64,000 nt of DNA, from the sequence record PX880101.1, one strand, 5' to 3'. The notes beneath the pieces are model-generated. The model searched no databases. It saw only the letters and a list, made by a program, of their open reading frames with translations, and had not been told where the DNA came from. Positions within the stretch are counted from its first letter, which is position 1. Each line of letters begins with the position of its first letter. Below are positions 4,951-60,994 of this stretch, piece by piece. Both the position numbers and the translations under genes were made by a program. Source of the DNA: a phage.

Positions 4951-5276
4951 CAGAGATCATCATTTCAACTGCAGGGTATGTGTTCCTGACAATCATTGCA
5001 CTGACTATTTTGGTGACAGTGTATGGGTTTGTTATCCTTCCTATCCTTGAGACATTTAGTTTGTGTCGGTGTTGGAGAAAAGCTTACGGTCCACAACCAT
5101 GGAAGGACTGGCCCCACCTGGTGCGCTTAGCGTTCTCTTATGCTTACGATCACTCCAGTAGTGCATGCATAACCGGATACCACGCCCACAACTGGAGCTG
5201 GGAAGGATTGAGGAAATGGAATGTTACAAAGACCATACCTCTACGCATGTACAAACCTAAAAACAAAGACAGCTGA
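4947..5276 (+). CDS. putative membrane protein
   Basis: N-terminal hydrophobic stretch AGYVFLTIIALTILVTVYGFVILPIL. Confidence 0.4.
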   Translation: MTEIIISTAGYVFLTIIALTILVTVYGFVILPILETFSLCRCWRKAYGPQPWKDWPHLVRLAFSYAYDHSSSACITGYHAHNWSWEGLRKWNVTKTIPLRMYKPKNKDS

Positions 5277-5289
5277 TACTTGAAAATTC

Positions 5290-5790
5290 CTGGCATATCA
5301 AGTGTAAGGGGGATTTCTAAAATGGATTTCCTCCTTTTGATATTTCACCGGGCTGGATATTTTAAAATTCTTAGAAAATCAGAAAATGGATCGAAAACTA
5401 AAATGGATTTTTCAGAGTAGGCGCGACAAGCTGAATAACTCATCCTATCGTTTGCACCATATTCCAGGCCACCATTATAGATTTCCCACACATGCTAACC
5501 TCCCTCTACTAGAACTTCCTCCACTTGCCCTTAACCTTCTATGGTAACAATCTAACCACTATCTTGAAGTTGCGGTGCAGCTTTCCAAGTACTCGATCTA
5601 CTTTTCATTTCATGGCTTGGATTTTCTGAAAATTTTTCTCGATAAATTTCTCAGTACTCGATCTGTTTTTCGTTTTCTGAATCGGATTTTCTGGAAATCG
5701 TTCCGGATCTCGACCTGAAATTTTTGGGGACGAAATCGATTTTTCGTTTTCAGAAATGGATTTTTAAAATTTCTATATGGGAATATTTTA
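5290..5790. repeat. AT-rich iteron-like region (repeated aaaatggattt, ggattttctg, agtactcgatct, tttcgttttc units)
   Basis: Several short motifs each occur 2-4 times in direct orientation in an ORF-free stretch. Confidence 0.6.
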
Positions 5791-5879
5791 TGGGATACTG
5801 TTTTATAGGAAATTGTTACGGAGGGTAATTAGCATGCTAATTAAATTTATTAAATGCGAGGAGTTCTCATTTAGAATTT

Positions 5880-6100
5880 TGAATGATAATCATTCTCGTT
5901 TGCAGAATAACGGGCAGGCCCGGTGATTGTCTCCCGGCCCCTGTTGCCCCGGCTTGTTATTATAGTATCACACAGGACAAAGAAAGCAAGGATTTTTTGC
6001 ATAAATTTTTAAATGATAATGATAACCGTTCTCATTTTATGCAGCGCCCATCCCCGGTGGTTGTCTCCCCCGTCACCGGTGCCTGCCGTCCTTTCGATAG
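5880..6100. repeat. two tandem ~75 bp units sharing core GGTG(A/G)TTGTCTCCC
   Basis: Units beginning aatgataat...gcag...ccggtgattgtctccc occur twice in tandem; the ORF-track reading frame here is probably spurious. Confidence 0.6.
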
Positions 6101-6293
6101 GTATATTTTGCCACCTGGCGGGGCCGCTGTCAACACTTTTCAAAAAAAAATTTCTAACCTGATGCGCTGACCGCTGCAACCTGGCGGGGCCAGCCTGGCA
6201 GGGCCTAACTGACCAGGTAGGAGATAATGAAGGCTTGCAAACCTGGTGGGCCTATGCTATAGGATAGGTAACAATTGAAGAGGAGGTACAAAA

Positions 6294-6470
6294 ATGGAAG
6301 GTAATATGATCCCCCTGGAAAATGTAGCTATTAATGACACTGAGGCTATCGCCCTGGTTGAAAAGGCTATGGCGGGAGCGTTGGAACATAAAGAAGAGTA
6401 CGAAAAAATGATGGTTAACCTGGCAGGGGCGGCGGCTGGAGAATTCTACCCAAAAAATAATTTTAACTAA
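6294..6470 (+). CDS. hypothetical small protein (58 aa, below ORF-track cutoff)
   Basis: ATG 8 nt after gaggagg RBS; hand-translated MEGNMIPLENVAIN... to TAA at 6468. Confidence 0.4.
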   Translation: MEGNMIPLENVAINDTEAIALVEKAMAGALEHKEEYEKMMVNLAGAAAGEFYPKNNFN

Positions 6471-6555
6471 TGGTTGACAGCTCGGACAGTTCTTGTTATT
6501 CTTATCCTCGCAAGGTGAACAACACCACACCAATTAACAGAGAGGATAAAAAATC

Positions 6556-6753
6556 ATGAACGCCTACGGAATTAAAGTACGTCGCAACACTCGCCAGGTG
6601 GTCACCAATCAAGTGATTTGCCGGGTGGATGTAACCATCAACAACGGGCAAGGCCTTTATAAATTTCGTCGCGGTCATAGCTATACCCTGCAGCAGCTTA
6701 ACCGTTGCGCCCTGACAAAAGGTCAGATCAACCACTGGTTTAATAAAAAATAA
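6556..6753 (+). CDS. hypothetical small basic protein
   Basis: ORF with agagagg RBS. Confidence 0.5.
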   Translation: MNAYGIKVRRNTRQVVTNQVICRVDVTINNGQGLYKFRRGHSYTLQQLNRCALTKGQINHWFNKK

Positions 6754-6817
6754 ATATTGACACGTAGTCTGACACAAAATATACTTAAATCACAAAAGAC
6801 ACTAAGAGGATAAAATC

Positions 6818-7216
6818 ATGAAAACTACAACCTTTAATTTTGACAATGCCGACTTCTCTTTTTCTGATGTTAAGAATTGCCGCCGTGATCGTGGATTTTA
6901 CAAGGCTTATAATCTGGTTGGCCTAGACGATGATAATAATTTGCACGAAGTAGCGGAGATCCGGTACTATGCCGCCGCCAGCGGTAACACTAACTACTGC
7001 GTTTTTTGGATACACGACAACAAGAATAATAAGTACGGTTATACTGGTGGCAAGGCGAGCGGTCACGGTTATGATAAGGCCAATGCAGCACTTGAGAGCG
7101 CGTTAAATGCTATGGGGATCACTGCCAACGGCTGGATCTATGAAGATGAGTTTTTGTCAGCACTTGCTGCCCACCTGGGGTATAAAAAGCACATTGTGAC
7201 ATGCGCCCACGAATAA
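6818..7216 (+). CDS. hypothetical protein
   Basis: ORF with TTGACA-N17-TATACT promoter and aagagga RBS upstream. Confidence 0.55.
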   Translation: MKTTTFNFDNADFSFSDVKNCRRDRGFYKAYNLVGLDDDNNLHEVAEIRYYAAASGNTNYCVFWIHDNKNNKYGYTGGKASGHGYDKANAALESALNAMGITANGWIYEDEFLSALAAHLGYKKHIVTCAHE

Positions 7217-7226
7217 AAAAAAATTA

Positions 7227-7254
7227 TTGACACGCTGCAAAATTAAAGTAAACT
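7227..7254 (+). promoter_or_regulatory. sigma70-like promoter (TTGACA-N16-TAAACT)
   Basis: Hexamers read directly; followed by leader hairpin and RBS of ORF 7304. Confidence 0.55.
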
Positions 7255-7264
7255 AGACACAAAA

Positions 7265-7283
7265 GGCGGGAATGTTTCCCGCC
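7265..7283 (+). promoter_or_regulatory. 5' leader hairpin GGCGGGAA-tgt-TTCCCGCC (member of a recurring leader-hairpin family)
   Basis: Perfect 8 bp inverted repeat between promoter -10 and RBS. Confidence 0.5.
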
Positions 7284-7303
7284 AACACAAAGGAAAAAAG
7301 ATC

Positions 7304-7699
7304 ATGAATAAGAACGTACGCCGCATCATGAACGAACTGGCAAACGATGAAAAAATTATTGATATGCATTTGGTAAACATTTGCCGCCGTTGTGTAACAT
7401 ATAACAACCGCGCCGCAAAAGCGCGTGAGATGAACGCAAAAGGCACCTTAAAGCCCTTTCAGGTGGTTGTAAAATCTATAACCAGTGCAGCAGACCAGGC
7501 GCATGACCACAACAACGGGAGCACTAATATTGATCCGTCTTACGTAATGAAACGGATCCGGACTTGCAAGAATAAAGAGCAGGTGTATAACGTCATAGAT
7601 TGGTTGGACTCCCTGGGCGATGTGGTTTATAATAGGTTTTCTGCAGCTATCGAGATCCAGCTTGACAGACTGGACGGGAAAGTACTGAAAACTTACTAA
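7304..7699 (+). CDS. hypothetical protein
   Basis: ORF with promoter, leader hairpin and RBS. Confidence 0.55.
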   Translation: MNKNVRRIMNELANDEKIIDMHLVNICRRCVTYNNRAAKAREMNAKGTLKPFQVVVKSITSAADQAHDHNNGSTNIDPSYVMKRIRTCKNKEQVYNVIDWLDSLGDVVYNRFSAAIEIQLDRLDGKVLKTY

Positions 7700-7710
7700 G
7701 TTTATTTTTA

Positions 7711-7734
7711 GATGGCCTTGACGCCAGGGCCATC
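7711..7734 (+). promoter_or_regulatory. 24 bp palindrome GATGGCCTTGACGCCAGGGCCATC overlapping a -35 TTGAC (operator-like), copy 1
   Basis: 10 bp arms (9/10 match) around a 4 bp centre; near-identical 45 bp element repeated at 8330 and 12068. Confidence 0.5.
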
Positions 7735-7778
7735 AATAAAGTAAACTAATCCCAGTTAAGCTAAAAGGAGGCTTGAAG

Positions 7779-7898
7779 ATGAGCACTACACGCCAGCACA
7801 CAAAGGTAACTATTATCGTTTGCATCATTGGTTATATCCTGGCGCAAATGTTGATGGGTAGCGCCAACGGTGTCGCAAAATTTTTCTTAAACTTTTAA
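7779..7898 (+). CDS. small hydrophobic protein (39 aa)
   Basis: Strong aaaaggagg RBS; hand translation MSTTRQHTKVTIIVCIIGYILAQML... Confidence 0.35.
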   Translation: MSTTRQHTKVTIIVCIIGYILAQMLMGSANGVAKFFLNF

Positions 7899-7926
7899 TT
7901 GACAAGCTAACTTAGATCGGTATACT
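7899..7926 (+). promoter_or_regulatory. sigma70-like promoter (TTGACA-N16-TATACT)
   Basis: Consensus hexamers; followed by hairpin gggaa-aac-ttccc and RBS. Confidence 0.6.
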
Positions 7927-7976
7927 AAACACATCAACGGGAAAACTTCCCAGAACACACAAAAGGAGAAAACACC

Positions 7977-8318
7977 ATGACCACTATGACCGCCGCAGAA
8001 AAAGCTATTCAGATCGCTGCCCTGAAAAAACAGATCGCAGACCTTGAGAATAAGATCGATAACTTTGAAATCGACGAGGACAAGTACGACGAAAACTATG
8101 ATGAATGGTTAGACGAGATCTACGGCGAAATTATGATCGGAAACATTTCTTTTCTTCCGTCGCGTATCCTCAAGGAGCTAGATCCTATCGCTTACCGCTG
8201 CGGATTTAGCGACTACATCGACAGCCTGGATATTGAGGACGATGAAGAATACCAGGAATTACAGACAGAGTTGGAAGAAGCAAAAGAAGAGCTTGCGGAG
8301 CTGGAAGAAAACGAGTAA
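7977..8318 (+). CDS. hypothetical acidic coiled-coil protein
   Basis: ORF with aaaaggag RBS; Glu/Asp-rich. Confidence 0.55.
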   Translation: MTTMTAAEKAIQIAALKKQIADLENKIDNFEIDEDKYDENYDEWLDEIYGEIMIGNISFLPSRILKELDPIAYRCGFSDYIDSLDIEDDEEYQELQTELEEAKEELAELEENE

Positions 8319-8329
8319 GATTATTTTTA

Positions 8330-8353
8330 GATGGCCTTGACTCCAGGGCCATC
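8330..8353 (+). promoter_or_regulatory. 24 bp palindrome GATGGCCTTGACTCCAGGGCCATC, copy 2
   Basis: Same element as 7711, including the flanking ttatttttag...aataaagtaaact. Confidence 0.5.
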
Positions 8354-8407
8354 AATAAAGTAAACTTTATACTGTTAACACTGAACTAATGCATAGGAGT
8401 TAAAACC

Positions 8408-8653
8408 ATGGCAGCACTAATCACTAAATATTACGCCCCTACCAACACCAAAAGCGCCCGTATCATGGTAAAAGGCTTCGGACGTAAAAAGGTTTACACC
8501 TGGGATTATGCCTTAGACACGGAAGACAACTACACCAACGCGATGACAGATTTTATTAATGAGCTGAACACGCGGATCTTGACAAATTATAAAATTACCG
8601 ATATTGCCTATATAGGGGAAGGCGGGATCTGTTTTGTCGGTATCGTCAAATAA
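8408..8653 (+). CDS. hypothetical protein
   Basis: ORF with taggag RBS. Confidence 0.5.
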   Translation: MAALITKYYAPTNTKSARIMVKGFGRKKVYTWDYALDTEDNYTNAMTDFINELNTRILTNYKITDIAYIGEGGICFVGIVK

Positions 8654-8666
8654 ACTGTTTTTTCGG

Positions 8667-8688
8667 TGGTCCTGGTAGCAGGGCCATC
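8667..8688 (+). promoter_or_regulatory. divergent palindrome TGGTCCTGgtagCAGGGCCA, related to the GATGGCC element
   Basis: 8 bp inverted repeat, same position relative to the downstream gene. Confidence 0.4.
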
Positions 8689-8729
8689 TATAAAGATAGT
8701 TTATCAATACAATGAAAGGAGAAAGTAAC

Positions 8730-9083
8730 ATGATCAGTGGGGCAAGTTTTATTATTGGCGCTATTGCTACGGCTTTAATTGTAAACAAGATCCAATCTAA
8801 AAACGAAAAAGAGAGCAACGCGCTCACAGAATACCCATTTTGGATATTCAACGACAATGAAGACTACATTATCAAGTACAAGAATGAGAAGGGCGACCAG
8901 GTAACACCGCGACCGATCCCGGCCTACAAGATGCAAGAAACACTATACCGCCTAAAGGCTGGAGGCGCAAAAATCGTAGACTTTTGGGGATATGATTGCA
9001 AGGATCAGGAGGTTATAAAACGGCGTATCCGGGCTATTCAGGCCAATATTGAAGTTAGCAAGGGGGGAATATATGAAGATTAA
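8730..9083 (+). CDS. putative membrane protein
   Basis: ATG after aaaggag RBS; N-terminal hydrophobic segment ISGASFIIGAIATALIV; the earlier ORF-track ATG lies inside the RBS. Confidence 0.5.
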   Translation: MISGASFIIGAIATALIVNKIQSKNEKESNALTEYPFWIFNDNEDYIIKYKNEKGDQVTPRPIPAYKMQETLYRLKAGGAKIVDFWGYDCKDQEVIKRRIRAIQANIEVSKGGIYED

Positions 9084-9270
9084 TTTTGAGAAGATTGTAA
9101 AGCGATCTCATGATTCCGAAGAGCTGCCGGAACGCCGCCAGCGTAACAATAAACTGAATAAGCCAAAAAGATTTGGGAAGATCTGGCGGAATCATTATGA
9201 TCGTAAATTGCCGGGCCTCCTTTTGGAACGTGAACGGCAGGCGGAACGATACCGCCACAAAGGCAACTAA
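9073..9270 (+). CDS. small basic protein
   Basis: Internal ATG with aagggggg RBS; Arg/Lys-rich. Confidence 0.4.
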   Translation: MKINFEKIVKRSHDSEELPERRQRNNKLNKPKRFGKIWRNHYDRKLPGLLLERERQAERYRHKGN

Positions 9271-9277
9271 CAACCAA

Positions 9278-9307
9278 CGCCCCGCCATCGTGCGGGGCTT
9301 TTTATTT
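9278..9307 (+). terminator. intrinsic terminator
   Basis: Hairpin gccccgc-catcg-tgcgggg followed by ctttttatttc. Confidence 0.6.
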
Positions 9308-9510
9308 CTACCCTACGAATAGCGCCCCTGGTTGGCCCTGTAAGCGCCAAAAAGGCCCCACCTATGCAATCGCCCCCTTTAACCTGAAAACATCGCTTAG
9401 GGCCGTTTTATGGCGTTAAAAATATCATTGACAGTGATTTTATTTAAAGCTTGACATCTTAAACAGGTTAGCTATACTAACCACATCAAAGAGAGAAAGG
9501 AGTAAACGCC

Positions 9511-9771
9511 ATGCGTAAATTAAAAAATTTTGATAAAGTTGATGTTGTCCTGAATAATTTTTACTACTGCAACAACAAGGCCATTTGGTGGCGTGATAGT
9601 TCCACCGATAAAGTCAAGGCGCGCTTTCTCCAGGGGCACTGGCAAGGCCGCCCAGTGATTAAAATCATGGGGCAATTGGTAGCGTTTAAAAATTGCCGCC
9701 GTGTTGATGACGTTGAGGAGATTTTAAACATTTTGCGCCACAATAATTTAAAAAATAGTGTTGACAAGTAA
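9511..9771 (+). CDS. hypothetical protein
   Basis: ORF with TTGACA-N16-TATACT promoter and aaaggag RBS. Confidence 0.5.
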   Translation: MRKLKNFDKVDVVLNNFYYCNNKAIWWRDSSTDKVKARFLQGHWQGRPVIKIMGQLVAFKNCRRVDDVEEILNILRHNNLKNSVDK

Positions 9772-9788
9772 ATCTCAATAAGTATAAT
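9761..9788 (+). promoter_or_regulatory. sigma70-like promoter (TTGACA-N16-TATAAT)
   Basis: Consensus hexamers; followed by hairpin ggcgg-gaaaactta-ccgcc (9799-9817). Confidence 0.6.
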
Positions 9789-9845
9789 TAAACACACAGG
9801 CGGGAAAACTTACCGCCACTAACAAAGAAAACAGGAGAAAATATC

Positions 9846-10469
9846 ATGACCACCGTTAACATTACCACAGGTTACAATTTATCTTTCGACGTGCTGACCG
9901 ACGAACAAAAAGAAAAAGCCATTGAAATGGTACGCGAAAGAGAAGAACACAGCGGGGATGACTTTTTTGCAGAAAGTGTAATTGAACACTACAAAGAATA
10001 TATCTTTCCAGAGTACGGCCTTGAAGATACCGAAGTACATTGGTCCGGCTTTTGGTGCCAGGGTGACGGCGCGTCAATCAGTGCTGAAAACGTGGATTTA
10101 GAAAAATTTTTGCGTAAAGTAAAGGCCCTGACCAAGTTCCGATCAATTCGTCACTTGTTCGGCACAATGCACGATGGCGAGTTATCAGCCAGTGTTGAAC
10201 GCGACAAGTACAGCCATTACAGCCATGAAAACACTGTAAGCGGATACATTGATACCACCTGGCTAGATCTGACCGCCAAACAAGAAAACAAAGTGGAAGA
10301 CCTGGAAGAGCTGATCACCGAGACGGTACGGGAGCTATCCCGCAAGGTTTACGTAGACCTGGAGGAGGCCTATCTAGAACAGTTCACTACCGAAAACCTG
10401 ATCGGCCTTATTGAGGCCAATGATTGGCGGTTTGATGTGGATGAATATGGAGAGATGAGTTTTTCATAA
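9846..10469 (+). CDS. hypothetical protein
   Basis: ORF with promoter, leader hairpin and RBS. Confidence 0.55.
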   Translation: MTTVNITTGYNLSFDVLTDEQKEKAIEMVREREEHSGDDFFAESVIEHYKEYIFPEYGLEDTEVHWSGFWCQGDGASISAENVDLEKFLRKVKALTKFRSIRHLFGTMHDGELSASVERDKYSHYSHENTVSGYIDTTWLDLTAKQENKVEDLEELITETVRELSRKVYVDLEEAYLEQFTTENLIGLIEANDWRFDVDEYGEMSFS

Positions 10470-10560
10470 ATAAAGTGTTGCAATAATCTAAAAACCTGCT
10501 ATATTAAAACTCAAGGGGGGGCAAGACGTTTGCCCCACACAAAACAAAGAGGAAAACATT

Positions 10561-10941
10561 ATGAAAAACACTACTAAAGCTATTGACACCGTTATGTTTA
10601 ACCTGGTTACCTTTCGCGAGGATATGAAAGATCTTCCACGTGAAACAGTGTGCGATCACATTGAAAACTATCGCAAACTAATCAAAGAGTTGCCTTTAAA
10701 ACGTGACCAGTATGCGGCTAACGCTATGCTCAACGCCATGATCAAAAAGATGATTCAGTGTGATTTAACCCTGGCCTATGATTATGCAGGTGGTCGTTTT
10801 GCAGTATACAATCAGCCCGTGCCTGGTATGAGCACCACCGAAGAATTGCACGCGTTAAATCTGAAACAAGATGTATGGGATAACATGCCCCGCGTGGTGG
10901 TGTGGGCAGAAAGCGGAAAGATTTACGGCGATAATTTTTAA
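10561..10941 (+). CDS. hypothetical protein
   Basis: ORF with promoter, hairpin gggggcaagacgtttgcccc and aagagga RBS. Confidence 0.55.
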   Translation: MKNTTKAIDTVMFNLVTFREDMKDLPRETVCDHIENYRKLIKELPLKRDQYAANAMLNAMIKKMIQCDLTLAYDYAGGRFAVYNQPVPGMSTTEELHALNLKQDVWDNMPRVVVWAESGKIYGDNF

Positions 10942-10951
10942 TCAGGTAACA

Positions 10952-10978
10952 GGCGGCATATTTGCCGCCTTATTGTTA
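10952..10978 (+). terminator. intrinsic terminator
   Basis: Hairpin ggcggca-tat-ttgccgcc followed by ttattgtt. Confidence 0.5.
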
Positions 10979-11005
10979 AACAGAACTGCAAAAGAGGTAC
11001 ATAGA

Positions 11006-11377
11006 ATGGAATTTATTATTTTGGCTGTAGTAGTTGCCTTGTTCAACGCCTGGATCGCTGGCAAGATAGGTAGATCCGCTTTTCTATGGTTTGTTATATC
11101 TATTTTCCTGGGAGTGGTTGCAACTATTGTATTGGTTATCCTTGCAATTGTTGACAAGGGCGATAATAGAAAGGGTAAAGTGTTTTCCGACCTGTATGAC
11201 GCACAAACGTTTGTCAACGCCTATTATAGTGATCTTCCAGTCTCCCTACGCTGCAGCCTGGCACAACAGGTTTTTGATGAGGCTAAAACCAGAGACCAAG
11301 CCCATGAGATATGTTTAACTGAAGCGGATCGCCTATTTGAGAGGAATAGAAAATATGTGGACCAGCCGTTTAAATAA
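11006..11377 (+). CDS. membrane protein with two predicted TM helices
   Basis: ATG after aaagagg RBS; MEFIILAVVVALFNAWIAG and FLWFVISIFLGVVATIVLVILAIV. Confidence 0.5.
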   Translation: MEFIILAVVVALFNAWIAGKIGRSAFLWFVISIFLGVVATIVLVILAIVDKGDNRKGKVFSDLYDAQTFVNAYYSDLPVSLRCSLAQQVFDEAKTRDQAHEICLTEADRLFERNRKYVDQPFK

Positions 11378-11596
11378 CGCCACGTTAATTAATCCCTTTA
11401 GTGAAGATTTGAAGCCAGCCGCCTGGCGTGACGGATTCAATAACGAACGCTTTATTTTCAGGCCTGATCTTGAGGAATTTTATAACAATGGATCGAACAA
11501 CAGCGGAGATAATTTTTCTTGTGGTGTGCGTGGTGATAGGACTCCTGGGGGCCATTGTAAACCACGTCACTACTAACAGGAGGGAAGGGGGAGACG

Positions 11597-11716
11597 ATGA
11601 CAACCAAGGATAAGCCATGCGCTGATAAGGTGCGCCGTGTTATGGTATGGCTTGAGATTATCGCCCTTGAAATATTGTTAGGCGTAGGGATGTACTTTAT
11701 CGCTGTAAGTAACTAA
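11597..11716 (+). CDS. small membrane protein (39 aa)
   Basis: Strong aggagggaaggggg RBS; hydrophobic C-terminal half; terminator follows. Confidence 0.3.
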   Translation: MTTKDKPCADKVRRVMVWLEIIALEILLGVGMYFIAVSN

Positions 11717-11720
11717 GAGC

Positions 11721-11750
11721 GGCCCCCGATCATGGGGGCCTATCTTTTAA
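11721..11750 (+). terminator. intrinsic terminator
   Basis: Hairpin ggccccc-gatcat-gggggcc followed by tatcttttaaaaaattttt. Confidence 0.6.
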
Positions 11751-11854
11751 AAAATTTTTCTTCCGGGGTGTTGCAATCCGGTCCGGAATGTGGATAATAA
11801 CAATCAACGGGGAGCTAATCCCCACCACCACAAAAACCAGAAAGGAGAAACAAA

Positions 11855-12055
11855 ATGAGCAACAATATCCGCGTTATTAACTTCAAAAAAGAAGAAAAAA
11901 TTGCCGTGCTGATTGACGGTCAAGAAATCTTCAAGGGCGACTATGAAGATCATCAAACGGCGATTAGTATCACTCGCGTGATTGGTTATCATAATTTCTA
12001 CCCCCAAGGCGCTGAGGCAGCAGTTAAACGAATCAAAGAGATTGTAGGCCTGTAA
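11855..12055 (+). CDS. hypothetical small protein
   Basis: ORF with promoter, hairpin cggggagctaatccccacc and aaaggag RBS. Confidence 0.5.
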   Translation: MSNNIRVINFKKEEKIAVLIDGQEIFKGDYEDHQTAISITRVIGYHNFYPQGAEAAVKRIKEIVGL

Positions 12056-12067
12056 AATTTATTTTTA

Positions 12068-12091
12068 GATGGCCTTGACTTCAGGGCCATC
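12068..12091 (+). promoter_or_regulatory. 24 bp palindrome GATGGCCTTGACTTCAGGGCCATC, copy 3
   Basis: Third copy of the 45 bp element. Confidence 0.5.
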
Positions 12092-12148
12092 GATAAAGTA
12101 AATTTAAACCCTGTTAAAATACCACGCAGTTAACAAGGAGTGATAGAC

Positions 12149-12448
12149 ATGTTTATCCAGGCTAATAATCTTTATTTCTTTGATGGTCAGATCGTAGATG
12201 GTGTGGAAGTGGAGATCACCGGGTGCCCTGGCGGTCAGGCTATGACTTTTCGGAATAATGCCTTTGATGATTCTCATATCGTTATGAGAATGGAAGTTAC
12301 GAAGCTGGACGACAAGAAAACACTTATTGACTATTCTGTGAAAGATCATCCAGACTACCGCATGATCCATGGTGATTTGTGCATTGTTGACCGTGACAAG
12401 GTGGGCGGCATTGTGATCGCTATTGTGAACGATGTTTTCTCAAACTAA
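12149..12448 (+). CDS. hypothetical protein
   Basis: ATG 8 nt after aaggag RBS. Confidence 0.5.
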   Translation: MFIQANNLYFFDGQIVDGVEVEITGCPGGQAMTFRNNAFDDSHIVMRMEVTKLDDKKTLIDYSVKDHPDYRMIHGDLCIVDRDKVGGIVIAIVNDVFSN

Positions 12449-12840
12449 TTTCAGCAGGCGATTTTATGAAAGTCAAACTATATTACCTTAATGAGCTTAA
12501 CCCCCTTGCCCAGGTCCGCGCCCTAGCTAATACCTTGATTTGTGAGAAATCTGTATATTGTGTTGAGCTTAACACGTCTCAAAGGTGGTTACTTTGACAT
12601 CCATGCTGCAATCAACGGCCTGAATATGGAATTTATACGCTTACGTAACAGCCGCCGGAATCTGGCAAGAATGGAACAAGATCCGGCCCACCTTCGCAAG
12701 CTGGTTATTGAAAATCATCTGATGTTTAATGCCGAGGGGGATTATTACCATTTTCACCGCAAACGCTGGTACCGTGGCGGCAATACAGGCAAGAATGCAA
12801 AATAAGGCCCCTAGCAGGGCCTGCAGCAATATAATCACAT

Positions 12841-12875
12841 AAAGGCCATGCGGTTGCATGGCCTTTATTATTTTG
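12841..12875 (+). terminator. intrinsic terminator
   Basis: Hairpin aaaggccatgc-ggtt-gcatggccttt followed by attatttt. Confidence 0.6.
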
Positions 12876-13007
12876 GCGTTACAACGGCATACGGGGCGCT
12901 TAAAAAATTTTTAAAGAAGTACTTGCATCATTCCCGACAATATGGATAATAAGAGTTGTCGAGGGGGAGGCCCCCAATCGTTGACCAGATAGATAGGAGT
13001 TAAAATC

Positions 13008-13292
13008 ATGGCTATTGTTACCGCTGGCGATGTAGTAGAAATGGAAGCAAAATACTTAAAAGCGGGTATGCACATCCTACGGAATGATCAAGAGTTATTA
13101 TTAACGATGGTTGACTATAATCACGGCCAGGATTATCCAAGCATCGACTACTTTTTTGAGTATGTTGATGAAGAGTTGAAAGAGGATGAGGCCTATTGCG
13201 GTGAGTTCTGCAACTTCTTTTGTCCTGATGAGGTTGTAAAGGTTATTTATCAACCTGGCGTAGCTTTCCCGCTGCACGCTATCAATAAATAA
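13008..13292 (+). CDS. hypothetical acidic protein
   Basis: ORF with TTGCAT...GATAAT promoter, hairpin gggggaggccccc and taggag RBS. Confidence 0.5.
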   Translation: MAIVTAGDVVEMEAKYLKAGMHILRNDQELLLTMVDYNHGQDYPSIDYFFEYVDEELKEDEAYCGEFCNFFCPDEVVKVIYQPGVAFPLHAINK

Positions 13293-13347
13293 ACCTGGCG
13301 GGGCCGAAAAGGCCCCCAATTATGAAAATAAAGAGAGGCAAATCATC

Positions 13348-13581
13348 ATGATGGAACAAATTAAACGCGCCGAGGCTATTAATGGCAACGTGATCTATTT
13401 TGTCAGCAAAAACGAAAAAGGCGTACCATATGCGGCAGTAATAGTACAACCTGACGGCGATTATTGGTTTACTGTGTACGGCGCTTATTCTTTTGGGCGT
13501 CCAGTGCATGATAAAATTTTGAAAGTAGCGAACCCTACCGGGAAGAATATCACAGCAGAAAAATTTTTTGAAAATAGTTGA
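13348..13581 (+). CDS. hypothetical protein
   Basis: ORF with aaagagagg RBS. Confidence 0.5.
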   Translation: MMEQIKRAEAINGNVIYFVSKNEKGVPYAAVIVQPDGDYWFTVYGAYSFGRPVHDKILKVANPTGKNITAEKFFENS

Positions 13582-13605
13582 CATGACCATATAAGACTGT
13601 AATAT
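13578..13605 (+). promoter_or_regulatory. sigma70-like promoter (TTGACA-N16-TAATAT)
   Basis: Hexamers; followed by hairpin ggggcaacgaacccc and aagagga RBS. Confidence 0.55.
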
Positions 13606-13656
13606 ATAAATCAAAGGGGGCAACGAACCCCACCAACTACAAAGAGGATAAAAATC

Positions 13657-13836
13657 ATGGCTATTATTGCAAAGACTGAGATCGTAGGCTTAGATTCTAT
13701 TCTCCTCGCATATGAGGAAGCTATAGAAATGTATGTGGTTTCCTATGGTGAGTATATCCGTGAATATAAATCTATTGATCTGGCTTTTGAATGTTATATC
13801 CGCCAGGTTAATAAAGCGTACGATGATTATCGTTAA
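13657..13836 (+). CDS. hypothetical small protein (59 aa)
   Basis: ATG after aaagaggataaaaatc; hand translation MAIIAKTEIVGLDSILLAYEEAIEMYVVS... Confidence 0.4.
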   Translation: MAIIAKTEIVGLDSILLAYEEAIEMYVVSYGEYIREYKSIDLAFECYIRQVNKAYDDYR

Positions 13837-13923
13837 AATAGTTTGACAACAGCCATCTTACAAAGCATAATACATAAGGCGGTGGAATGGTCCGCCACCT
13901 GGAACAAAGAAGAGGTAAACACC

Positions 13924-14169
13924 ATGAAAAGCAATAAAGGTTATAACGGTTACAAAAACAAAACTCATTGGAATGTAAGCCTTTGGATTAATAACGATGA
14001 GTCATTGTACCGGTTGGCCCAAGGCTTTATTAACGCCAATGCTAATCGTAATGATGCGGCGCGGGATATGATGCTTTTTCTGGAGCTAACCGGACAAGAT
14101 AAGACCCCGGACGGCTTCAAGTACAGCACTACGGCGATCCGTGCCGCGATGGTTGGAATGAAACACTAA
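13924..14169 (+). CDS. hypothetical protein
   Basis: ATG after aagaagagg RBS, downstream of leader hairpin ggcgg-tggaatggt-ccgcc; the upstream ORF-track start would run through the hairpin. Confidence 0.5.
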   Translation: MKSNKGYNGYKNKTHWNVSLWINNDESLYRLAQGFINANANRNDAARDMMLFLELTGQDKTPDGFKYSTTAIRAAMVGMKH

Positions 14170-14360
14170 AAGCACATAGCTGCCTTACCCTGGGGCTGTG
14201 GTAGCGGCCCCATGAATAAGGTTACTAACAGAAGAGAATAAACACCGTGAAACAGAAATTAATCGATGCAGTGATCTTGGTTATTGCCCTGGGTATTGGC
14301 CTGATTGCAACCATGTCTAATATGATCTTGTCTTCCAACGGTATCTGGTGAGGTTGGCAA

Positions 14361-14576
14361 ATGATCACTAACAAAACAGGCAAAACGGAATTTTTACGCA
14401 ACTTACAGATCGGCAAGCCTGAGATCTGGTACTGCACTAAAACACCGCGTGACGAAATGAAAGACTTCACCGCCACGCTGCAACGGGTAAAGATATCTAT
14501 CACGCAGAAAAAGGCCTTACTAGTGGTGGAAGGGGAGATCCCCCAAACCGTTGTTATAGTTGAGCGTACAGCATAG
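14361..14576 (+). CDS. hypothetical small protein
   Basis: ORF. Confidence 0.4.
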   Translation: MITNKTGKTEFLRNLQIGKPEIWYCTKTPRDEMKDFTATLQRVKISITQKKALLVVEGEIPQTVVIVERTA

Positions 14577-14667
14577 TTTAATTTATACAGATACCTGAAA
14601 ATTAACCAACAAAGCATAAACAGGCGGTTACCGCCGCCTTAAACGTAGCAGAAAGAGGATAGACACA

Positions 14668-14952
14668 ATGAAAAAGATGATCGCAGTGGTTACCCTGGTT
14701 GTTGGACTTAATGCGCCTGTAATGGCTAAAGAGCTGGCAAAAGAGGTTAATCTAACGGATATTCATGCCGTCAATCAAATCGGGGTTACTTATCGCTTAT
14801 GCCTTGCCGCTAAAACTTTTAAGGACGGCACAACAGAGTACTACGGATTCGAGGGTATCCGGTGCGGTGAGCTTGCTCGCGACCTTAAGGAAGATCCAGA
14901 CCTGGAGGAACTGCCCATAACCGTGAACGGGAAAACTTACGTGAACCGTTAA
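14668..14952 (+). CDS. putative secreted or periplasmic small protein
   Basis: Signal-peptide-like MKKMIAVVTLVVGLNAPVMA; aagagga RBS; leader hairpin ggcgg-tta-ccgcc upstream. Confidence 0.5.
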   Translation: MKKMIAVVTLVVGLNAPVMAKELAKEVNLTDIHAVNQIGVTYRLCLAAKTFKDGTTEYYGFEGIRCGELARDLKEDPDLEELPITVNGKTYVNR

Positions 14953-14954
14953 CC

Positions 14955-15089
14955 ATGAGAAAGATAATTATTACCATGGGGATCGTGGCGGCAATGTTGG
15001 CGATCTTTCCCTTTATGGTTAGGTATGTGCTGATTAATGTTGTCCTGGTAGTCAGCGATCTGGTGTTATATATTAACTCATTGTTTTAG
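14955..15089 (+). CDS. small membrane protein (44 aa)
   Basis: ATG overlapping upstream stop; hydrophobic throughout. Confidence 0.3.
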   Translation: MRKIIITMGIVAAMLAIFPFMVRYVLINVVLVVSDLVLYINSLF

Positions 15090-15097
15090 GCGCGATA

Positions 15098-15289
15098 ATG
15101 ACAGCGGAAGAAGTTAAAAAAGTACTGGCGGTACTGCGTTATCATAATCATTGCAAGGTGAAGAATGATCCTGATTATCTTGATTCATCCCTTGAAGAGG
15201 ATACACTACAAGCCATAAGCAACATGCAAGAATTGCTTAAGCGTATGACAGAGAAAAACCGACCGGACTACATAGGGGGTAAAATATGA
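15098..15289 (+). CDS. hypothetical small protein
   Basis: ORF. Confidence 0.4.
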   Translation: MTAEEVKKVLAVLRYHNHCKVKNDPDYLDSSLEEDTLQAISNMQELLKRMTEKNRPDYIGGKI

Positions 15290-15597
15290 TCGCTATTACG
15301 CCAACCGTTTTAGATTGGTATCGGCAACGCATAGCGCCTCCGCTGGCTATCTTCAAAGATGCGGAAGCAAAACAACGCCGGATCTCAATACATGAGATCA
15401 TCAACCTTAACGCTGGAGGCACACCATACCGCCCAGGACCTGGCCGTGAGATGGACAATACATTGGCGATCCTGAAGATACGCCGTAAACGGTCCTCCCT
15501 TACGCTGGATTCATTACACACAATGCAGTCTCCGTTCCAGGTGACTGGGAAACGGATCGCCAGGTCCTGGACAAAGGCCAATGACCGGACCGTATAA
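15286..15597 (+). CDS. hypothetical protein
   Basis: ORF overlapping upstream stop by 4 nt. Confidence 0.4.
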   Translation: MIAITPTVLDWYRQRIAPPLAIFKDAEAKQRRISIHEIINLNAGGTPYRPGPGREMDNTLAILKIRRKRSSLTLDSLHTMQSPFQVTGKRIARSWTKANDRTV

Positions 15598-15651
15598 ATA
15601 AAAAGTGTTTTGGTACTGATTTTGGGGTTGACTTGTTCGGCCCCTTTTGCT

Positions 15652-15707
15652 ATTCTTATTAAACGGGCGGCACTTGGGAACAGGGGGAGACAATCACCAG
15701 GCCTGCC
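15652..15707 (-). repeat. inverted copy of the GGCAGGCC-GGTGATTGTCTCCC element seen at 5913-5958
   Basis: Reverse complement caggcaggcctggtgattgtctccccctgttccc closely matches gggcaggcccggtgattgtctcccggcccctgttgccc. Confidence 0.55.
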
Positions 15708-15816
15708 TGTCATATAAGAACTATAAAAACCGTTGACATCTGCCAGGGGGGTGGGGTAACATTTATCTTGAAGGGGCAAAGGTGCCCACACAACAACCAG
15801 AAGAGAGGAAAACACT

Positions 15817-16089
15817 ATGTCAAGCTGGATTAATCAAGAAGTCGAATCACGTTTTAATGCTATTTGGGATCTCATCGAAAAAGAAGACGGCACATCAAGC
15901 CCCTACCTCAACAATTTGGAATTCCATTTTGTGGAAGCGATGAACGCAGAACATGATCACGAAGGTGGTGCGGACGAGTTCGCTAAAGGGTATGGCTTCA
16001 ATAATGCCAACGAAATGATCGAGGCGGTTGTACTCCAGGCTGAGGAAGATTATCAATTAAAAACGCTTGAATTCTGCCGCCGTAAGTAA
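15817..16089 (+). CDS. hypothetical acidic protein
   Basis: ORF with promoter, hairpin ggggcaaaggtgccc and agagagg RBS. Confidence 0.5.
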   Translation: MSSWINQEVESRFNAIWDLIEKEDGTSSPYLNNLEFHFVEAMNAEHDHEGGADEFAKGYGFNNANEMIEAVVLQAEEDYQLKTLEFCRRK

Positions 16090-16149
16090 TAGGATAATGA
16101 CACGGGCCGGGAGGCCCACTAATCAGAACCACACAAAGAGGTAAACATC

Positions 16150-16413
16150 ATGAAACGTCTTGATCAGCTTAAACTAGTTCAGTACATGGCCTACAAAGTT
16201 CTTGAAGTCCAAAAAGGTAGCAAAAAAGAGGTTTGCGAGAAAGCATATAAGATCTTTACCCGTAAAAAAGATGATTGGATGTTACGCCAGACCAAAAAAG
16301 CCGATATCCTGGGATACCTGGAAGAAGAGATCCGACTTGAAGAACAAGAAGAGATCCGCCGTAGTGAGGCAGATTATCAGGCAGCTTGGGAAAACTGGAT
16401 GAGTAACAAATAA
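16150..16413 (+). CDS. hypothetical protein
   Basis: ORF with hairpin gggccgggaggccc and aaagagg RBS. Confidence 0.5.
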   Translation: MKRLDQLKLVQYMAYKVLEVQKGSKKEVCEKAYKIFTRKKDDWMLRQTKKADILGYLEEEIRLEEQEEIRRSEADYQAAWENWMSNK

Positions 16414-16480
16414 TACAACAAGTTACATGGTCAGGGGCAATAAAGCCCCTTGATCGCATAAAAAATTATGCTATCCTTGG

Positions 16481-16509
16481 TTGACAAGGATCGTCAGTTT
16501 TGCTATATT
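16481..16509 (+). promoter_or_regulatory. sigma70-like promoter (TTGACA-N17-TATATT)
   Basis: Hexamers upstream of ORF 16558. Confidence 0.55.
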
Positions 16510-16557
16510 CTTTTTGAAGGGAAGTTGTAAGAAAATTAACTAAGAGGTAAAAACACC

Positions 16558-16977
16558 ATGAACATTAAATCTAATAATCCGGCATATAGCTTTGATAACG
16601 CTTTTTGTCACGGTCCGGCGGCGAAAGGATTCGAAATCGATGGTAAACTAATTATTGTCAATGTTGACGGGGAAGAGGTTGCAGTATATCCGGTGGCAGA
16701 CGTAAAAAGCCGTTTACAATGCCGCATTGATGTTACCGCCTATCAGCTTGATCCGGTCCGCATAGTTGCCCTGGTCCTGGAAGAAGAAATTAAAGCCATG
16801 CACCATAGCAACAGATTTATTGGTGACGCGCAGGATAATATGAAAGTATGCCGCCATAAAGTTAATGAAGTGCTTAAAGAGTACGGCTATAAAGATCTTA
16901 TGATCAAACGTGAGGAAAAATTCCGCTACCGTAACGACCTGGCAAATCGAATCTATGAAATATACGAATCATTATAA
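16558..16977 (+). CDS. hypothetical protein
   Basis: ORF with aagagg RBS. Confidence 0.55.
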   Translation: MNIKSNNPAYSFDNAFCHGPAAKGFEIDGKLIIVNVDGEEVAVYPVADVKSRLQCRIDVTAYQLDPVRIVALVLEEEIKAMHHSNRFIGDAQDNMKVCRHKVNEVLKEYGYKDLMIKREEKFRYRNDLANRIYEIYESL

Positions 16978-16994
16978 TTTCTTAACTAAACTAT

Positions 16995-17024
16995 CAGGGG
17001 CTTTAAAAGGCCCCTTTCTTTTTG
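16995..17024 (+). terminator. intrinsic terminator ending the plus-strand small-gene array
   Basis: Hairpin aggggc-tttaaaa-gcccct followed by ttctttttg. Confidence 0.6.
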
Positions 17025-17599
17025 TCTGTATTTCTCCTACCACAAACGGCCCAGCCTGGCAAGTGGAATAATTGACTAGCCATCAATCCCACACACTGTA
17101 CAAATATACATGGAAAATAACTATTGCATAATTTTTCATTGTGTGGTAGCAAGTCCATTTTTACCCGTTTTCTCTCTCAAAATTGCACGTAATGCCGCTA
17201 TTGCACAAATTTTAACCTGATGCACATCTCCAATATCTTGTCAACAACTAAAAATCTTTATAAGTCATACACTTACACAGCATCGAAAGCGTGTTCTACG
17301 CGAAAAATCGAGTATAACTATAGCCGCCAGATCTCAGAATTCACGTACGCACGCCATTCTATAGCCTGCAAAGTATTTATTCCAACCACAGAATAACGGA
17401 ATAGTCAATACCTGCATAAAATAATTATTCGTGTAAACTGCATAACATAAATCAGCTCAGGTGTCAACATTTTTCGTAAACAGTCCGAAATTATCACGAT
17501 GAGTTATCATAAACAGAGAAATCTTTAGTCGTCTAATGTTTACTGTACATTACTATACTGACTGGAATCATTAGATGACTAAGAGAAAGATAAGAAATA

Positions 17600-18020
17600 A
17601 TTAATAATGTAATTATTTTACCTGTAACAATAAGGCAACTATGCAAACGAATGGCATGGCGCGACGGAGTCGCGACATAATATAAAAGCAGTAACCATCA
17701 CCCCCGTGATAGTTTGTCTGCAATCTATTAATCAGATCATAGTTGCCTTGTATTCAGTTAATCATGACATAATAAGCAAGGCAACTATAGATCTGCTAAT
17801 AGTTGCCCTGCTTTTATATTATGTCATAGAAACACCCGAAGGGGTGACCAAAGGTCACCTGGCATGGCCAGTGAAAGATTATTAACTTGTTAATTGTTAA
17901 CTTGCTAATTGTTTTCATGCAAACGAATGTCATGGCTTATCCTATCTGTGTAAACAGTTAAGGTGTAAACTATCCAGGCGTAAACAGTCTATGCGGGAAC
18001 AATCTATACGTGAACAGTGA
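17600..18020. repeat. cluster of direct and inverted repeats
   Basis: AGGCAACTAT x4 in both orientations; catgcaaacgaatg(g/t)catggc x2; palindrome ggtgacc-aaa-ggtcacc; five copies of a G(T/C)GTAAACAG-like iteron between 17945 and 18015. Confidence 0.6.
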
Positions 18021-18629
18021 AACATGAAATAATAACAATCGTTATTGTGTCGAAAGTGTATAAGGTGTCATAGTATGTCAGACAAGTTTTTCTCCTCTTT
18101 GTCAAGTGCTGCATGAAAATTTACAAACTGGTATGGTAGCATTTTTGCGGCCCTGTTTACATTCAGTTGTGTATGTATAACCCTTGTTGTGTGGGCGTTT
18201 AGACGTCTGGACGGTTGGAAGTCTACAGGTCAATATCTAATCTATTGGCTGCTAACTATATCCCACACAAATAGTAAGAAATACAATTGTTATGTGAGTA
18301 AACGGTAACTCATGTTATCAATCCCTGTATGGATCGCCAGTGGTGCGCATAATGGGTATTATGTTAAATTGCCCGTAATGATAACTATTCTCACAATGAT
18401 AGGTATTCTCATTCACTCCCACAAGATAGGTTGCAAATGTTGTGCCACTGTGTGAACGGCCTCACCTATTAATTTGCCTCACTGCCTCGATATTTGAGAA
18501 TTGTTATAAGAATGAGAAGTATTCCCATTTCGTCCGCCTGGCAGCACTCCAGTCGCTACCGCTCATGACAGGGCAGAACTGGGTCCATTCAGATATTTCT
18601 GGCTGACTCTTCAGGTCTGTGTGGGAAAA

Positions 18630-18810
18630 GCCAACCTCTCCGGCGGGGCAGGGGTAGGTCAATTAAAAAATTTACGTGGTGTATGAAGAGCCCTTCAGGT
18701 AAGGCATGTATTATGGGATGAAACACCCTTCAGGCAATGATATTTGTGGGTGGGATATTTGCTGGAAAGCCAGATATGACGGGACTCCTGGCGGGGCAGG
18801 GGTAGTACAG
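18630..18810. repeat. direct repeats (ggcggggcaggggtag x2; cccttcagg x2)
   Basis: Two ~17 bp units about 148 bp apart, plus a second repeated unit between them. Confidence 0.55.
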
Positions 18811-60419: not shown

Positions 60420-60423
60420 AATT

Positions 60424-60912: not shown

Positions 60913-60917
60913 TTTTT

Positions 60918-60993: not shown

Positions 60994-60994
60994 A

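Follow-up and report, generated by a model that had tools for sequence, protein, structure and literature searches.

Promoter(early) stem-loops (PeSLs) are known from T4-like phages, reported for RB49 and phi1 and subsequently for PST/T4 and nt-1/KVP40 (Arbiol et al. 2010, PMC2839356; Comeau et al. 2014, PMC4122927). These elements fall into five positional subclasses and are concentrated in ORFan-rich hyperplastic regions, recombination between them yields indels and excised mini-circles, and their authors read the stem-loop as a terminator or attenuator (PMC2839356, PMC4122927). In a reporter assay the stem-loop of RB49 PeSL211/210 caused a drop in expression comparable to that of rrnB T1, and one RB49 crossover was mapped within the loop of a stem-loop (PMC2839356). 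In E. coli, 5'-terminal stem-loops stabilise the ompA and papA mRNAs (Emory, Bouvet & Belasco 1992, as summarised in the review PMC3997798), stabilisation by 5' structure being an established mechanism there and RppH and RNase E both requiring single-stranded 5' termini (PMC3997798). Here we analyse a stretch of phage DNA of 64,000 nucleotides (PX880101.1; hereafter the window), in which a block of small genes carries repeated units of a sigma70-type promoter, a short GC-rich hairpin and an A/C-rich leader ending in a strong ribosome-binding site. Because the window shows every PeSL feature that could be tested, we consider it very likely that the block is a PeSL-type cassette array. The architecture itself is already known from T4-like phages; what differs here is the lineage of the carrier and the dominant position of the hairpin. 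With less assurance, we lean towards a reading in which these units are portable cassettes whose 5' hairpin acts at the RNA level to protect or insulate the mRNA, with recombination reshuffling the ORFans that they serve.

The window belongs to a Vequintavirus (rV5-like) coliphage. The region is 99.8% identical to Escherichia phage A6-1, and about 60 further Vequintavirus genomes match at least 80% of the region's length. The block is the equivalent of rV5 ORF197-ORF164, a one-strand run of small hypothetical genes with no minus-strand gene among them, and its 3' limit is an ORF-poor stretch labelled "non-coding" by the rV5 paper. We read 33 open reading frames (ORFs) between 6294 and 16977, the intergenic share of the region being 23%. 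For the ten largest products every match in a PHROGs search was to a PHROG of unknown function and a Pfam search found no domain, while an Rfam scan of 5000-20000 with E up to 1 returned two sub-threshold chance matches and no known RNA family. When the ORF167 homologue was used in tblastn, RB49 was absent among the best 40 matches, and the shared gene noted in the rV5 annotation thus found no confirmation there. The block is a hyperplastic ORFan region of an rV5-like phage, and from its host-type promoters and gene content we infer that it is expressed early. The rV5 paper lists 33 sigma70-type promoters genome-wide and leaves hairpins unmentioned.

A promoter, hairpin and leader module

A full module comprises a -35 and a -10 hexamer, about ten A-rich nucleotides, a hairpin with a G-arm and a C-arm, an A/C-rich leader, a Shine-Dalgarno (SD) sequence and an ATG. 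We found nine complete modules of this kind (class 1), all confined to 7227-15819, with ATGs at 7304, 7977, 9846, 10561, 11855, 13008, 13657, 13924 and 15817, and three further genes (ATGs 13348, 14668 and 16150) that show the hairpin and leader but no clear promoter. The count of at least ten copies given in the initial annotation is therefore sound, and the three hairpins it quoted lie at 7265-7283, 10518-10536 and 13878-13896. Its statement that nearly every small ORF has its own promoter is overstated, because about half of the ORFs are promoterless and sit inside tight operons in which they overlap or are coupled (for example 8730/9074, 11006-11597, 14247/14361 and 14668-15286), a sigma70-like promoter standing upstream of only ~17-18 of the 33. 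The module likewise does not stand whole before each gene, as four promoters (ATGs 6556, 6818, 9511 and 16558) have no hairpin. In a second arrangement (class 2; 4-5 elements) the -35 hexamer lies within the hairpin loop.

The association between promoter and hairpin exceeds what the composition of the region gives. Our scan returned 42 promoter-like sites against 26.7 +/- 5.3 in shuffled sequence, and those matching at 10-12 of 12 positions (12 strong promoters, one of them 12/12) are nearly all on the plus strand and upstream of genes. At six of the 12 promoters with at least 10/12 the best hairpin begins 8-13 nt past the -10, compared with 0.043 for random positions in the same region and only 1/19 for strong promoters in the rest of the window. 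The mean AT content of the 22 nt before the -35 is 0.75 versus 0.57 region-wide. Independently, a repeat finder picked out family D2, which corresponds to the hairpin modules, and families D4, D5, D7 and D8, which correspond to the leader-SD-ATG segments. Two strong promoter-like sites outside the block, at 41949 (minus strand) and 56720 (plus strand), have a stable hairpin (~-15 kcal/mol) beginning within 2-3 nt downstream; their register and leader features are unlike those of class-1 modules.

The position of the hairpin is narrowly set. From the last base of the -10 to the start of the stem there are 6-12 nt overall and 10-12 nt in eight of nine modules, a tract that is 54% A. Taking transcription to start ~7 nt past the -10, the stem is predicted to begin ~0-6 unpaired nucleotides into the transcript and hence to be a 5'-proximal RNA hairpin, in agreement with the placement proposed in the initial annotation; lying ~10 nt downstream of the -10, the class-1 stem-loop would be the first structured element of the mRNA. 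Between hairpin and SD, A makes up 56% of the sequence, C 23%, G 12% and T 9% (32/20/23/25 for the region), and each of the 12 leaders folds into a hairpin at its 5' end, with the SD and start region behind it left unpaired (z-scores against shuffles from -0.5 to -4.4). An SD and ATG close every hairpin module (12/12), 20-32 nt past the stem. The 5' halves of 44 distinct hairpins hold 223 G and 71 C, and beyond this G-arm and C-arm the 12 hairpins of the window have no stem or loop sequence in common. In the 8 nt after the stem there are 0-3 T in class-1 and hairpin-only modules versus 5-7 in the region's five canonical terminators, which are located upstream of promoters and not downstream; on this count we rejected canonical intrinsic terminators as an assignment for these hairpins.

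Hairpins in orthologs and in other phages

To see how the twelve modules vary, we set them beside their orthologs in nine Vequintavirus records and two IMG/VR contigs; a search of IMG/VR with the 207-aa protein returned only two close relatives, too few for covariation. A stable hairpin stands at the same place in every orthologous copy of all 12 modules (51 distinct variants), and the single weak variant, in rV5 at ATG 16150, belongs to a different, inserted and thus non-orthologous gene. Across orthologs the loops are hypervariable, and the stems are constant or re-paired. Module 1 (7227..7306; this and all elements that follow are on the plus strand unless stated; -35 TTGACA 7227-7232, -10 TAAACT 7249-7254, hairpin GGCGGGAAtgtTTCCCGCC 7265-7283, A/C leader, SD, ATG 7304; dG -14.6, z -4.4) has in MiataMamis a different inner stem that pairs equally well (GGCGGTTGAtacTCAGCCGCC), and the hairpin of module 2 (7899..7979; -35 7899-7904, -10 TATACT 7921-7926, hairpin GGGAAaacTTCCC 7939-7951, leader agaacacacaaaa, ATG 7977) is identical in 7 orthologs. 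Module 3 (9761..9848) has the 12/12 promoter (-35 9761-9766, -10 TATAAT 9783-9788), with its hairpin at 9799-9817 and ATG at 9846. Here a C->A change in the copy of the window (TTACCGCC) disrupts three inner pairs and reduces stability from -13.1 to -8.5 kcal/mol, the perfect TTCCCGCC being present in six relatives; the loop is inverted (AAC to GTT) in JohannBauhin, and IMG2 has a U.G pair.

For module 4 (10478..10563; -35 TTGCAA 10478-10483, -10 TATATT 10500-10505, hairpin GGGGCAAgacgtTTGCCCC 10518-10536, leader acacaaaacaaag, ATG 10561) the six distinct ortholog hairpins are all stable (-11 to -16.6 kcal/mol), with a longer re-paired stem in HMD-6 and an inverted loop (GACGT/ACGTC) in YN3 and FV3. 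No compensatory pair was scored when the module-4 orthologs were aligned with MAFFT and run through RNAalifold, indels in the G/C runs spoiling the alignment, and folding each sequence by itself was more informative. Module 5 (11771..11857; -35 TTGCAA 11771-11776, -10 GATAAT 11793-11798, hairpin GGGGAgctaaTCCCC 11809-11823, ATG 11855) combines a constant stem with a variable loop across 10 orthologs. Module 6 (12923..13010; -35 TTGCAT 12923-12928, -10 GATAAT 12945-12950, hairpin GGGGGaggCCCCC 12963-12975, ATG 13008) occurs in eight distinct hairpin variants, among them a compensatory series at one pair, from GGGGG/CCCCC in the window through GGGGG/CCTCC with a G.U pair in Phage 203 and typing phage 4 to GGAGG/CCTCC in MiataMamis; RNAalifold scored that stem pair in 9 orthologs as GC in six, GU in two and AU in one. 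Module 7 lies at 13578..13659 (-35 13578-13583, -10 TAATAT 13600-13605, hairpin 13616-13631, ATG 13657). Typing phage 4 and Murica have U.G where the window has C-G in module 8 (13843..13926; -35 13843-13848, -10 CATAAT 13866-13871, hairpin GGCGGTGGAatgGTCCGCC 13878-13896, ATG 13924), and MiataMamis has the G.U variant TGCTC in module 9 (15733..15819; -35 15733-15738, -10 TAACAT 15757-15762, hairpin GGGCAaaggTGCCC 15774-15787, leader acacaacaaccagaagag, ATG 15817). The hairpin-and-leader genes vary in the same manner. The loop at 13300..13350 (no clear promoter; GGGGCCgaaaaGGCCCC 13300-13316, ATG 13348) is inverted from GAAAA to TTTTC in Phage 203; at 14623..14670 (no promoter; GGCGGttaCCGCC 14623-14635, ATG 14668) the whole imperfect palindrome 14623-14638 is inverted in FV3 (GGCGGTTACCGCCGCC/GGCGGCGGTAACCGCC); and at 16104..16152 (no clear promoter; GGGCCgggaGGCCC 16104-16117, leader with CACACAAA, ATG 16150) ortholog loops read gggA, aaaa or gaaa. 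Inversions of the loop or of the whole palindrome thus separate orthologs in 4 of 12 modules among ~10 genomes. They carry the signature of template switching or cruciforms and point to frequent DNA-level palindrome events at these hairpins, and a loop that can be inverted is therefore not read by anything sequence-specific.

The two strands also differ in how well they fold. With hairpins chosen symmetrically and by Watson-Crick cores only, the sense fold beats the antisense fold in 31 versus 15 of 47 distinct promoter-proximal hairpins (Wilcoxon p 0.004, an optimistic value that lends modest support to selection on the sense RNA, because the variants share ancestry), compared with 49 versus 41 for control hairpins from the 18-56 kb coding block. 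Taken together, the re-paired stems, the G.U intermediates and this strand bias suggest that the class-1 hairpin is probably selected as a sense-strand RNA structure of the 5' untranslated region (UTR).

We found the same design in phAPEC8, vB_EcoM_REC and phi92 (Stephanstirmvirinae), in SSE121 (Seunavirus) and in DU_PP_I (Certrevirus). The cassettes of phAPEC8, REC and phi92 are more uniform (TTGACA-N16/17, -10, gtatCACATA, GGGCGGCAATGGTGCCGCTC or GGGCGGGAAnnnTTCCCGCC, leader, SD, ATG), a hairpin begins 8-13 nt past the -10 at 12/21 strong promoters in vB_EcoM_REC and 11/17 in phi92, and in phi92 and phAPEC8-like phages two hairpin sequences, GGGCGGCAATGGTGCCGC and GGGCGGGAAnnnTTCCCGC, recur nearly unchanged. 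Salmonella phage SSE121 and Pectobacterium phage DU_PP_I have hairpins past the -10, in the -35/-10 spacer and straddling the -10. Single cassettes of DU_PP_I, upstream of the coding-sequence starts 964, 1500 and 4860, carry both a spacer hairpin (GGGGCC...GGCCCC) and a second one ~10 nt past the -10, which suggests that the two stem-loop positions have separate functions. Some of these elements already bear labels. The phAPEC8 record (NC_020079) lists a 'putative promoter determined with PHIRE' at 556-575, 937-956, 1787-1806 and 3202-3221; the PHIRE 20-mers (GTAGGGCGGCAATGGTGCCG, GGGCGGCGGGAATAGTTCCC) are the hairpins that follow the -10 in sigma70 promoter cassettes, and because they directly follow sigma70 promoters and form hairpins the label of a phage-specific promoter is, by its sequence context, probably wrong. 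Similarly, the Murica annotation labels as a terminator the stretch equivalent to a class-2 element of the window (12054..12151, below), a probable mis-annotation. Our literature search found no paper linking PeSL with rV5, phi92, PVP-SE1, phAPEC8 or Vequintavirinae.

Other elements and cassette turnover

Class-2 elements are largely copies of a 51-nt repeat (D1; four copies), which the initial annotation does not list and which consists of a T-rich tract, a hairpin GATGGCC-TTGACnnCAG-GGCCATC whose loop holds the -35, and a TAAACT -10 downstream. Copy a (7697..7781) has its T-rich tract followed by the hairpin GATGGCC-TTGACGccag-GGCCATC at 7711-7734 with the -35 TTGACG at 7718-7723, a -10 TAAACT ending at 7747 and ATG 7779; copy b (8316..8410) has the hairpin at 8330-8353 with the -35 in the loop, the -10 TAAACT ending at 8366 and ATG 8408; and copy c (12054..12151) has the hairpin at 12068-12091, again with the -35 in the loop, a -10 TAAATT ending at 12104 and ATG 12149. 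A degenerate copy (8651..8732, ATG 8730) has, as read from its sequence, a 10-bp hairpin GGTGGTCCTGgtagCAGGGCCATC at 8665-8688 with two G.U pairs, and has lost the -35. At 15624..15656 a composite element resembles both a terminator and a promoter: the hairpin GGGGTTGACTTGTTCGGCCCC, with the -35 TTGACT in its loop, is followed by TTTTGCTATTCT, which is at once a T-tract and a -10 (TATTCT), and our scan scored it both ways (promoter 15628-15656, terminator 15624-15644).

The promoters without a hairpin are those at 6474..6558 (TTGACA-17-TATTCT with no strong hairpin, an A/C-rich leader and ATG 6556), 6757..6820 (11/12, with leader, ATG 6818), 9428..9513 (tandem -35 hexamers TTGACA at 9428-9433 and 9451-9456, -10 TATACT, ATG 9511) and 16481..16560 (11/12, TG-extended, ATG 16558). 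Canonical intrinsic terminators lie at 9279..9306 (a hairpin followed by TTTTTATT, with 7 T in the 8 nt past the stem), at 11721..11748 just upstream of module 5, at 12839..12876 just upstream of module 6, and at 16996..17023, where one closes the plus-strand gene block. Beyond it, 17020-19450 is an AT-rich and ORF-poor stretch of ~2.4 kb between convergent gene blocks, the 'non-coding' box of the rV5 paper, with 15-bp tandem repeats at 17878-18018 and an 18-bp repeat at 18377-18411; it may be an origin or packaging region. Elsewhere in the window seven clustered tRNA genes (Arg, Tyr, Ser, Thr, Met, Pro) occupy 60345-61157, in which ARAGORN made one 99-nt call (60814-60912) with an unassigned 4-base anticodon.

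To survey indels we used a co-linear BLAST of 5500-17500 against nine relatives. This gave ~10 distinct events, most of whose junctions coincide with modules or lie at most a few bases from a start or stop codon, compared with an intergenic share of 23%, a comparison limited by the small number of independent events and by selection for intact genes, which also favours boundaries. Neither rV5 nor Phage 203 nor JohannBauhin has the module-8 cassette (13939-14229), and the junction shows a 32-nt overlap of leader and ribosome-binding site (RBS); an additional ORF of rV5 at 16118-16153 comes with a leader/RBS overlap of 36 nt. In MiataMamis 542 extra bp sit exactly at the upstream TTGACA (9428-9433) of the tandem -35 pair (9428-9456). 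An indel of 15291-15644 in 6 relatives has the composite hairpin/promoter 15624-15656 as its right junction, and FV3 and HMD-6 lack the last cassette (16421-16991).

Further short repeats were observed in and near the block. Allowing up to 2 mismatches, we counted the motif ACCTGGCGGGGCC 8 times (0.48 expected), at 6113, 6179, 6193, 6418, 13293, 17857 and 18786 on the plus strand and at 5110 on the minus strand; a similar sequence at ~6240 (aacctggtgggcc) and the copy at 6418 flank a 170-bp segment (6247-6416) that is absent from Murica, and the motif looks like another short recombination repeat. In the ORF-poor stretch just upstream of the block, 5579-5764 holds three direct repeats of ~65 bp with 74-76% identity (families D3 and D6). 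Nearby, a Fur-box-like site at 5882-5897 (AATGATAATCATTCTC) has 1 mismatch to the AATGATAATCATTATC core, with weaker overlapping sites at 6012-6033; such matches at up to 3 mismatches number 10 in the window versus 1.35 expected. Two copies of CCGGTGATTGTCTCCC (5920 and 6054) each stand ~25 nt downstream of a Fur-box-like site, a third is inverted at 15685-15700 (0.29 expected), and 5898-5975, the repeat beside these sites, folds no better than its shuffles (z -0.23). The arrangement may represent a small transcript under iron control, or else a repeat of no known function.

Proposed working, rival explanations and known systems

In the working that we propose, the cassette would supply an AT-rich tract and a near-consensus sigma70 promoter for the host RNA polymerase in its unmodified form, with transcription starting ~7 nt past the -10, often at the CA step of the conserved ACACA/CACATA tract. 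The 5'-proximal stem would then hinder 5'-end-dependent decay via RppH and the 5' sensor of RNase E, and as a stable local hairpin it would wall the ribosome-binding region off from upstream sequence, a property suited to a cassette that has been moved. The A/C-rich leader, which because it is poor in G and U should be unable to fold back on the SD, would lead into the strong SD and start codon. On read-through transcripts the same hairpin might form an additional barrier at the 3' end, and recombination between cassettes, made possible by their resemblance to each other, would add, remove and swap ORFans. Class-2 hairpins and the spacer hairpins of relatives lie outside their own transcripts and might act on read-through RNA or at the DNA level. 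The mRNA-protecting 5' hairpin suggested in the initial annotation is plausible; we propose only tentatively that mRNA stabilisation is the main effect of the class-1 hairpin.

Several points weigh against this working. A literature search for transcription start, 3'-end and half-life data in the rV5-like group gave nothing usable. If the start is 7 nt past the -10, several modules leave 4-6 unpaired nucleotides, which, by what Emory, Bouvet and Belasco reportedly found in 1992, reaches or exceeds the overhang at which a 5' stem-loop still protects. Three hairpins, having no recognisable promoter, would never be 5'-terminal in a primary transcript, and four strong promoters are without any hairpin. 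The variants in the sense/antisense comparison are related by descent, and a chimera test separated native from mixed arms poorly (-10.6 vs -9.7 kcal/mol), because any G-arm pairs with any C-arm, and was not used as evidence. Attenuation is also possible, since downstream of one RB49 stem-loop expression falls as it would behind a strong terminator.

This last point leads to the original PeSL view, that the stem-loops are terminators or attenuators which stop or damp transcription from upstream cassettes, in class 1 perhaps also output from their own strong promoter, and so set ORFan levels with no spill downstream. It draws on the RB49 PeSL211/210 reporter drop (PMC2839356), on the terminator labels that the Murica annotators gave to class-2 stretches, on the real T-tract after the 15624-15644 hairpin, and on the placement of the class-2 hairpins 7711-7734, 8330-8353 and 12068-12091 ~12 nt past the stop codon of the upstream gene, these hairpins being transcribed solely by read-through because the -35 sits in their loop. 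Class-1 hairpins, however, are followed by A/C-rich sequence with few T, and since they lie in their own transcript efficient termination would silence the gene served; their fixed distance of 6-12 nt from the -10 would have no obvious purpose, and modules 5 and 6 already have canonical terminators upstream. We therefore regard this view as unlikely. Antisense termination, in which the hairpins would be intrinsic terminators for minus-strand transcription and the preceding A-rich tract a T-tract on the other strand, seems highly improbable: the minus strands of 7265-7283, 11805-11827, 13617-13631 and 14623-14635 did scan as terminator-like (for example GGCGGGAAACATTCCCGCC then TTTTGTGT), but a usable T-run is present in only ~2-4 of 12, the block is without minus-strand genes, and it is the sense strand that folds better.

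The palindrome inversions raise a further explanation, in which the hairpins act mainly in DNA as hot spots of recombination or template switching (as cruciforms or hairpin DNA) and any RNA role is incidental. Besides the inversions in 4/12 modules, indel junctions fall inside the module-8 hairpin (13882) and at the class-2-like hairpin 15624-15644 (15645), and the RB49 crossover was mapped in a loop (PMC2839356). On the other side, the G.U intermediates and the bias towards sense folding would be A.C mismatches on the other strand, the register relative to the -10 is constant, and most junction homologies lie in the leader/RBS or -35 and not in the hairpin; we find a chiefly DNA-level role rather improbable, although it is compatible with an RNA role and not strictly exclusive of it. 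The initial annotation also offered the hairpin as a common regulator-binding site, and a phage or host early-gene regulator, or antitermination of the lambda N/boxB type, would fit an element repeated before many co-regulated genes and the near-constancy of GGGCGGCAATGGTGCCGC and GGGCGGGAAnnnTTCCCGC in phi92 and phAPEC8-like phages. That proposal finds no support in the window, where the hairpins share only a G-arm and a C-arm and the loops differ between modules, change freely and are even inverted between orthologs, and where a search of 5800-17500 for the boxA-like motifs CGCTCTTA, GCTCTTTA and TGCTCTTTA found none and Rfam gave no family; we consider it very unlikely.

We can also speculate, as an improbable extension, that the 5' hairpin and A/C leader form a 'plug-and-play' expression standard across families which shields early mRNAs from 5'-end-dependent decay, with the spacer and 5'-UTR hairpins as two devices and with cassettes exchanged between unrelated myovirus families. 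The idea of two devices, the spacer hairpin of RB49 and the 5'-UTR hairpin of rV5 and phi92, comes from the Certrevirus cassettes that carry both. If this were true, any ORFan would be expressed predictably wherever recombination places its cassette, and the shielding would possibly be from phage-stimulated decay directed at host mRNA. In T4, Srd is an activator of RNase E. An Srd homologue is listed for rV5 in the rV5 paper. On the more restricted reading of portable cassettes with an RNA-level hairpin, the array would explain how the fast-changing unknown early genes of rV5-like, phi92-like and related therapeutic phages are expressed and reshuffled, and would extend the PeSL concept beyond T4-like phages. 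The stem-loop shifted into the transcript offers an experimental handle to separate an RNA stabiliser or insulator from an attenuator, and the cassettes could serve as compact natural promoter-5'UTR parts for the design of expression in E. coli.

Among known systems, the hairpins resemble intrinsic terminators in being short, GC-rich and intergenic; they are unlike them in that class-1 hairpins have no U-tract and stand downstream of a promoter rather than upstream. As in lambda nut sites, a small hairpin lies in what would be an early leader RNA, but there is no conserved loop, and there is one hairpin per gene and not per operon. With the ompA and papA stabilisers the element shares a sequence-independent stem-loop near the predicted 5' end and, after it, a single-stranded ribosome-binding region; as in the ompA type, structure matters and sequence does not, the loops of the window varying and one pair being compensated. 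Unlike those stabilisers, the element is multiplied over many phage genes within a mobile cassette, with an overhang of 0-6 nt predicted from the -10.

The likeness is most complete with the PeSLs. Here too a near-consensus sigma70 promoter with an AT-rich upstream tract has a Gn-loop-Cn stem-loop beside or overlapping it, an A/C-rich leader and strong SD with the ATG at the 3' end of the element follow, and the elements cluster among small ORFs of unknown function, with indels between relatives bounded by the elements. The class-2 element with its -35 in the loop is a described PeSL subclass, and the Seunavirus and Certrevirus relatives carry spacer and -10-straddling hairpins in the style of RB49. 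Unlike the PeSLs described so far, the carriers are Vequintavirinae and Stephanstirmvirinae and not T4-like myoviruses of the Straboviridae; the restriction to T4-like carriers is taxonomic, reflecting the descriptions published so far, and not functional. Read directly, the hyperplastic region of RB49 shows TTGACA-GGGGATCnnnGATCCCC-TATAAT or a -10-straddling hairpin, then an A/C-rich leader and AGGAGAATCAAA-ATG, and one cassette has its hairpin 12 nt after the -10, as in the window. The commonest hairpin positions in RB49 are between -35 and -10 or over the -10, and thus outside the cassette's own mRNA, whereas in the window and in phi92/phAPEC8-like phages the dominant position is ~10 nt past the -10, where the stem-loop is predicted to be part of the 5' UTR.

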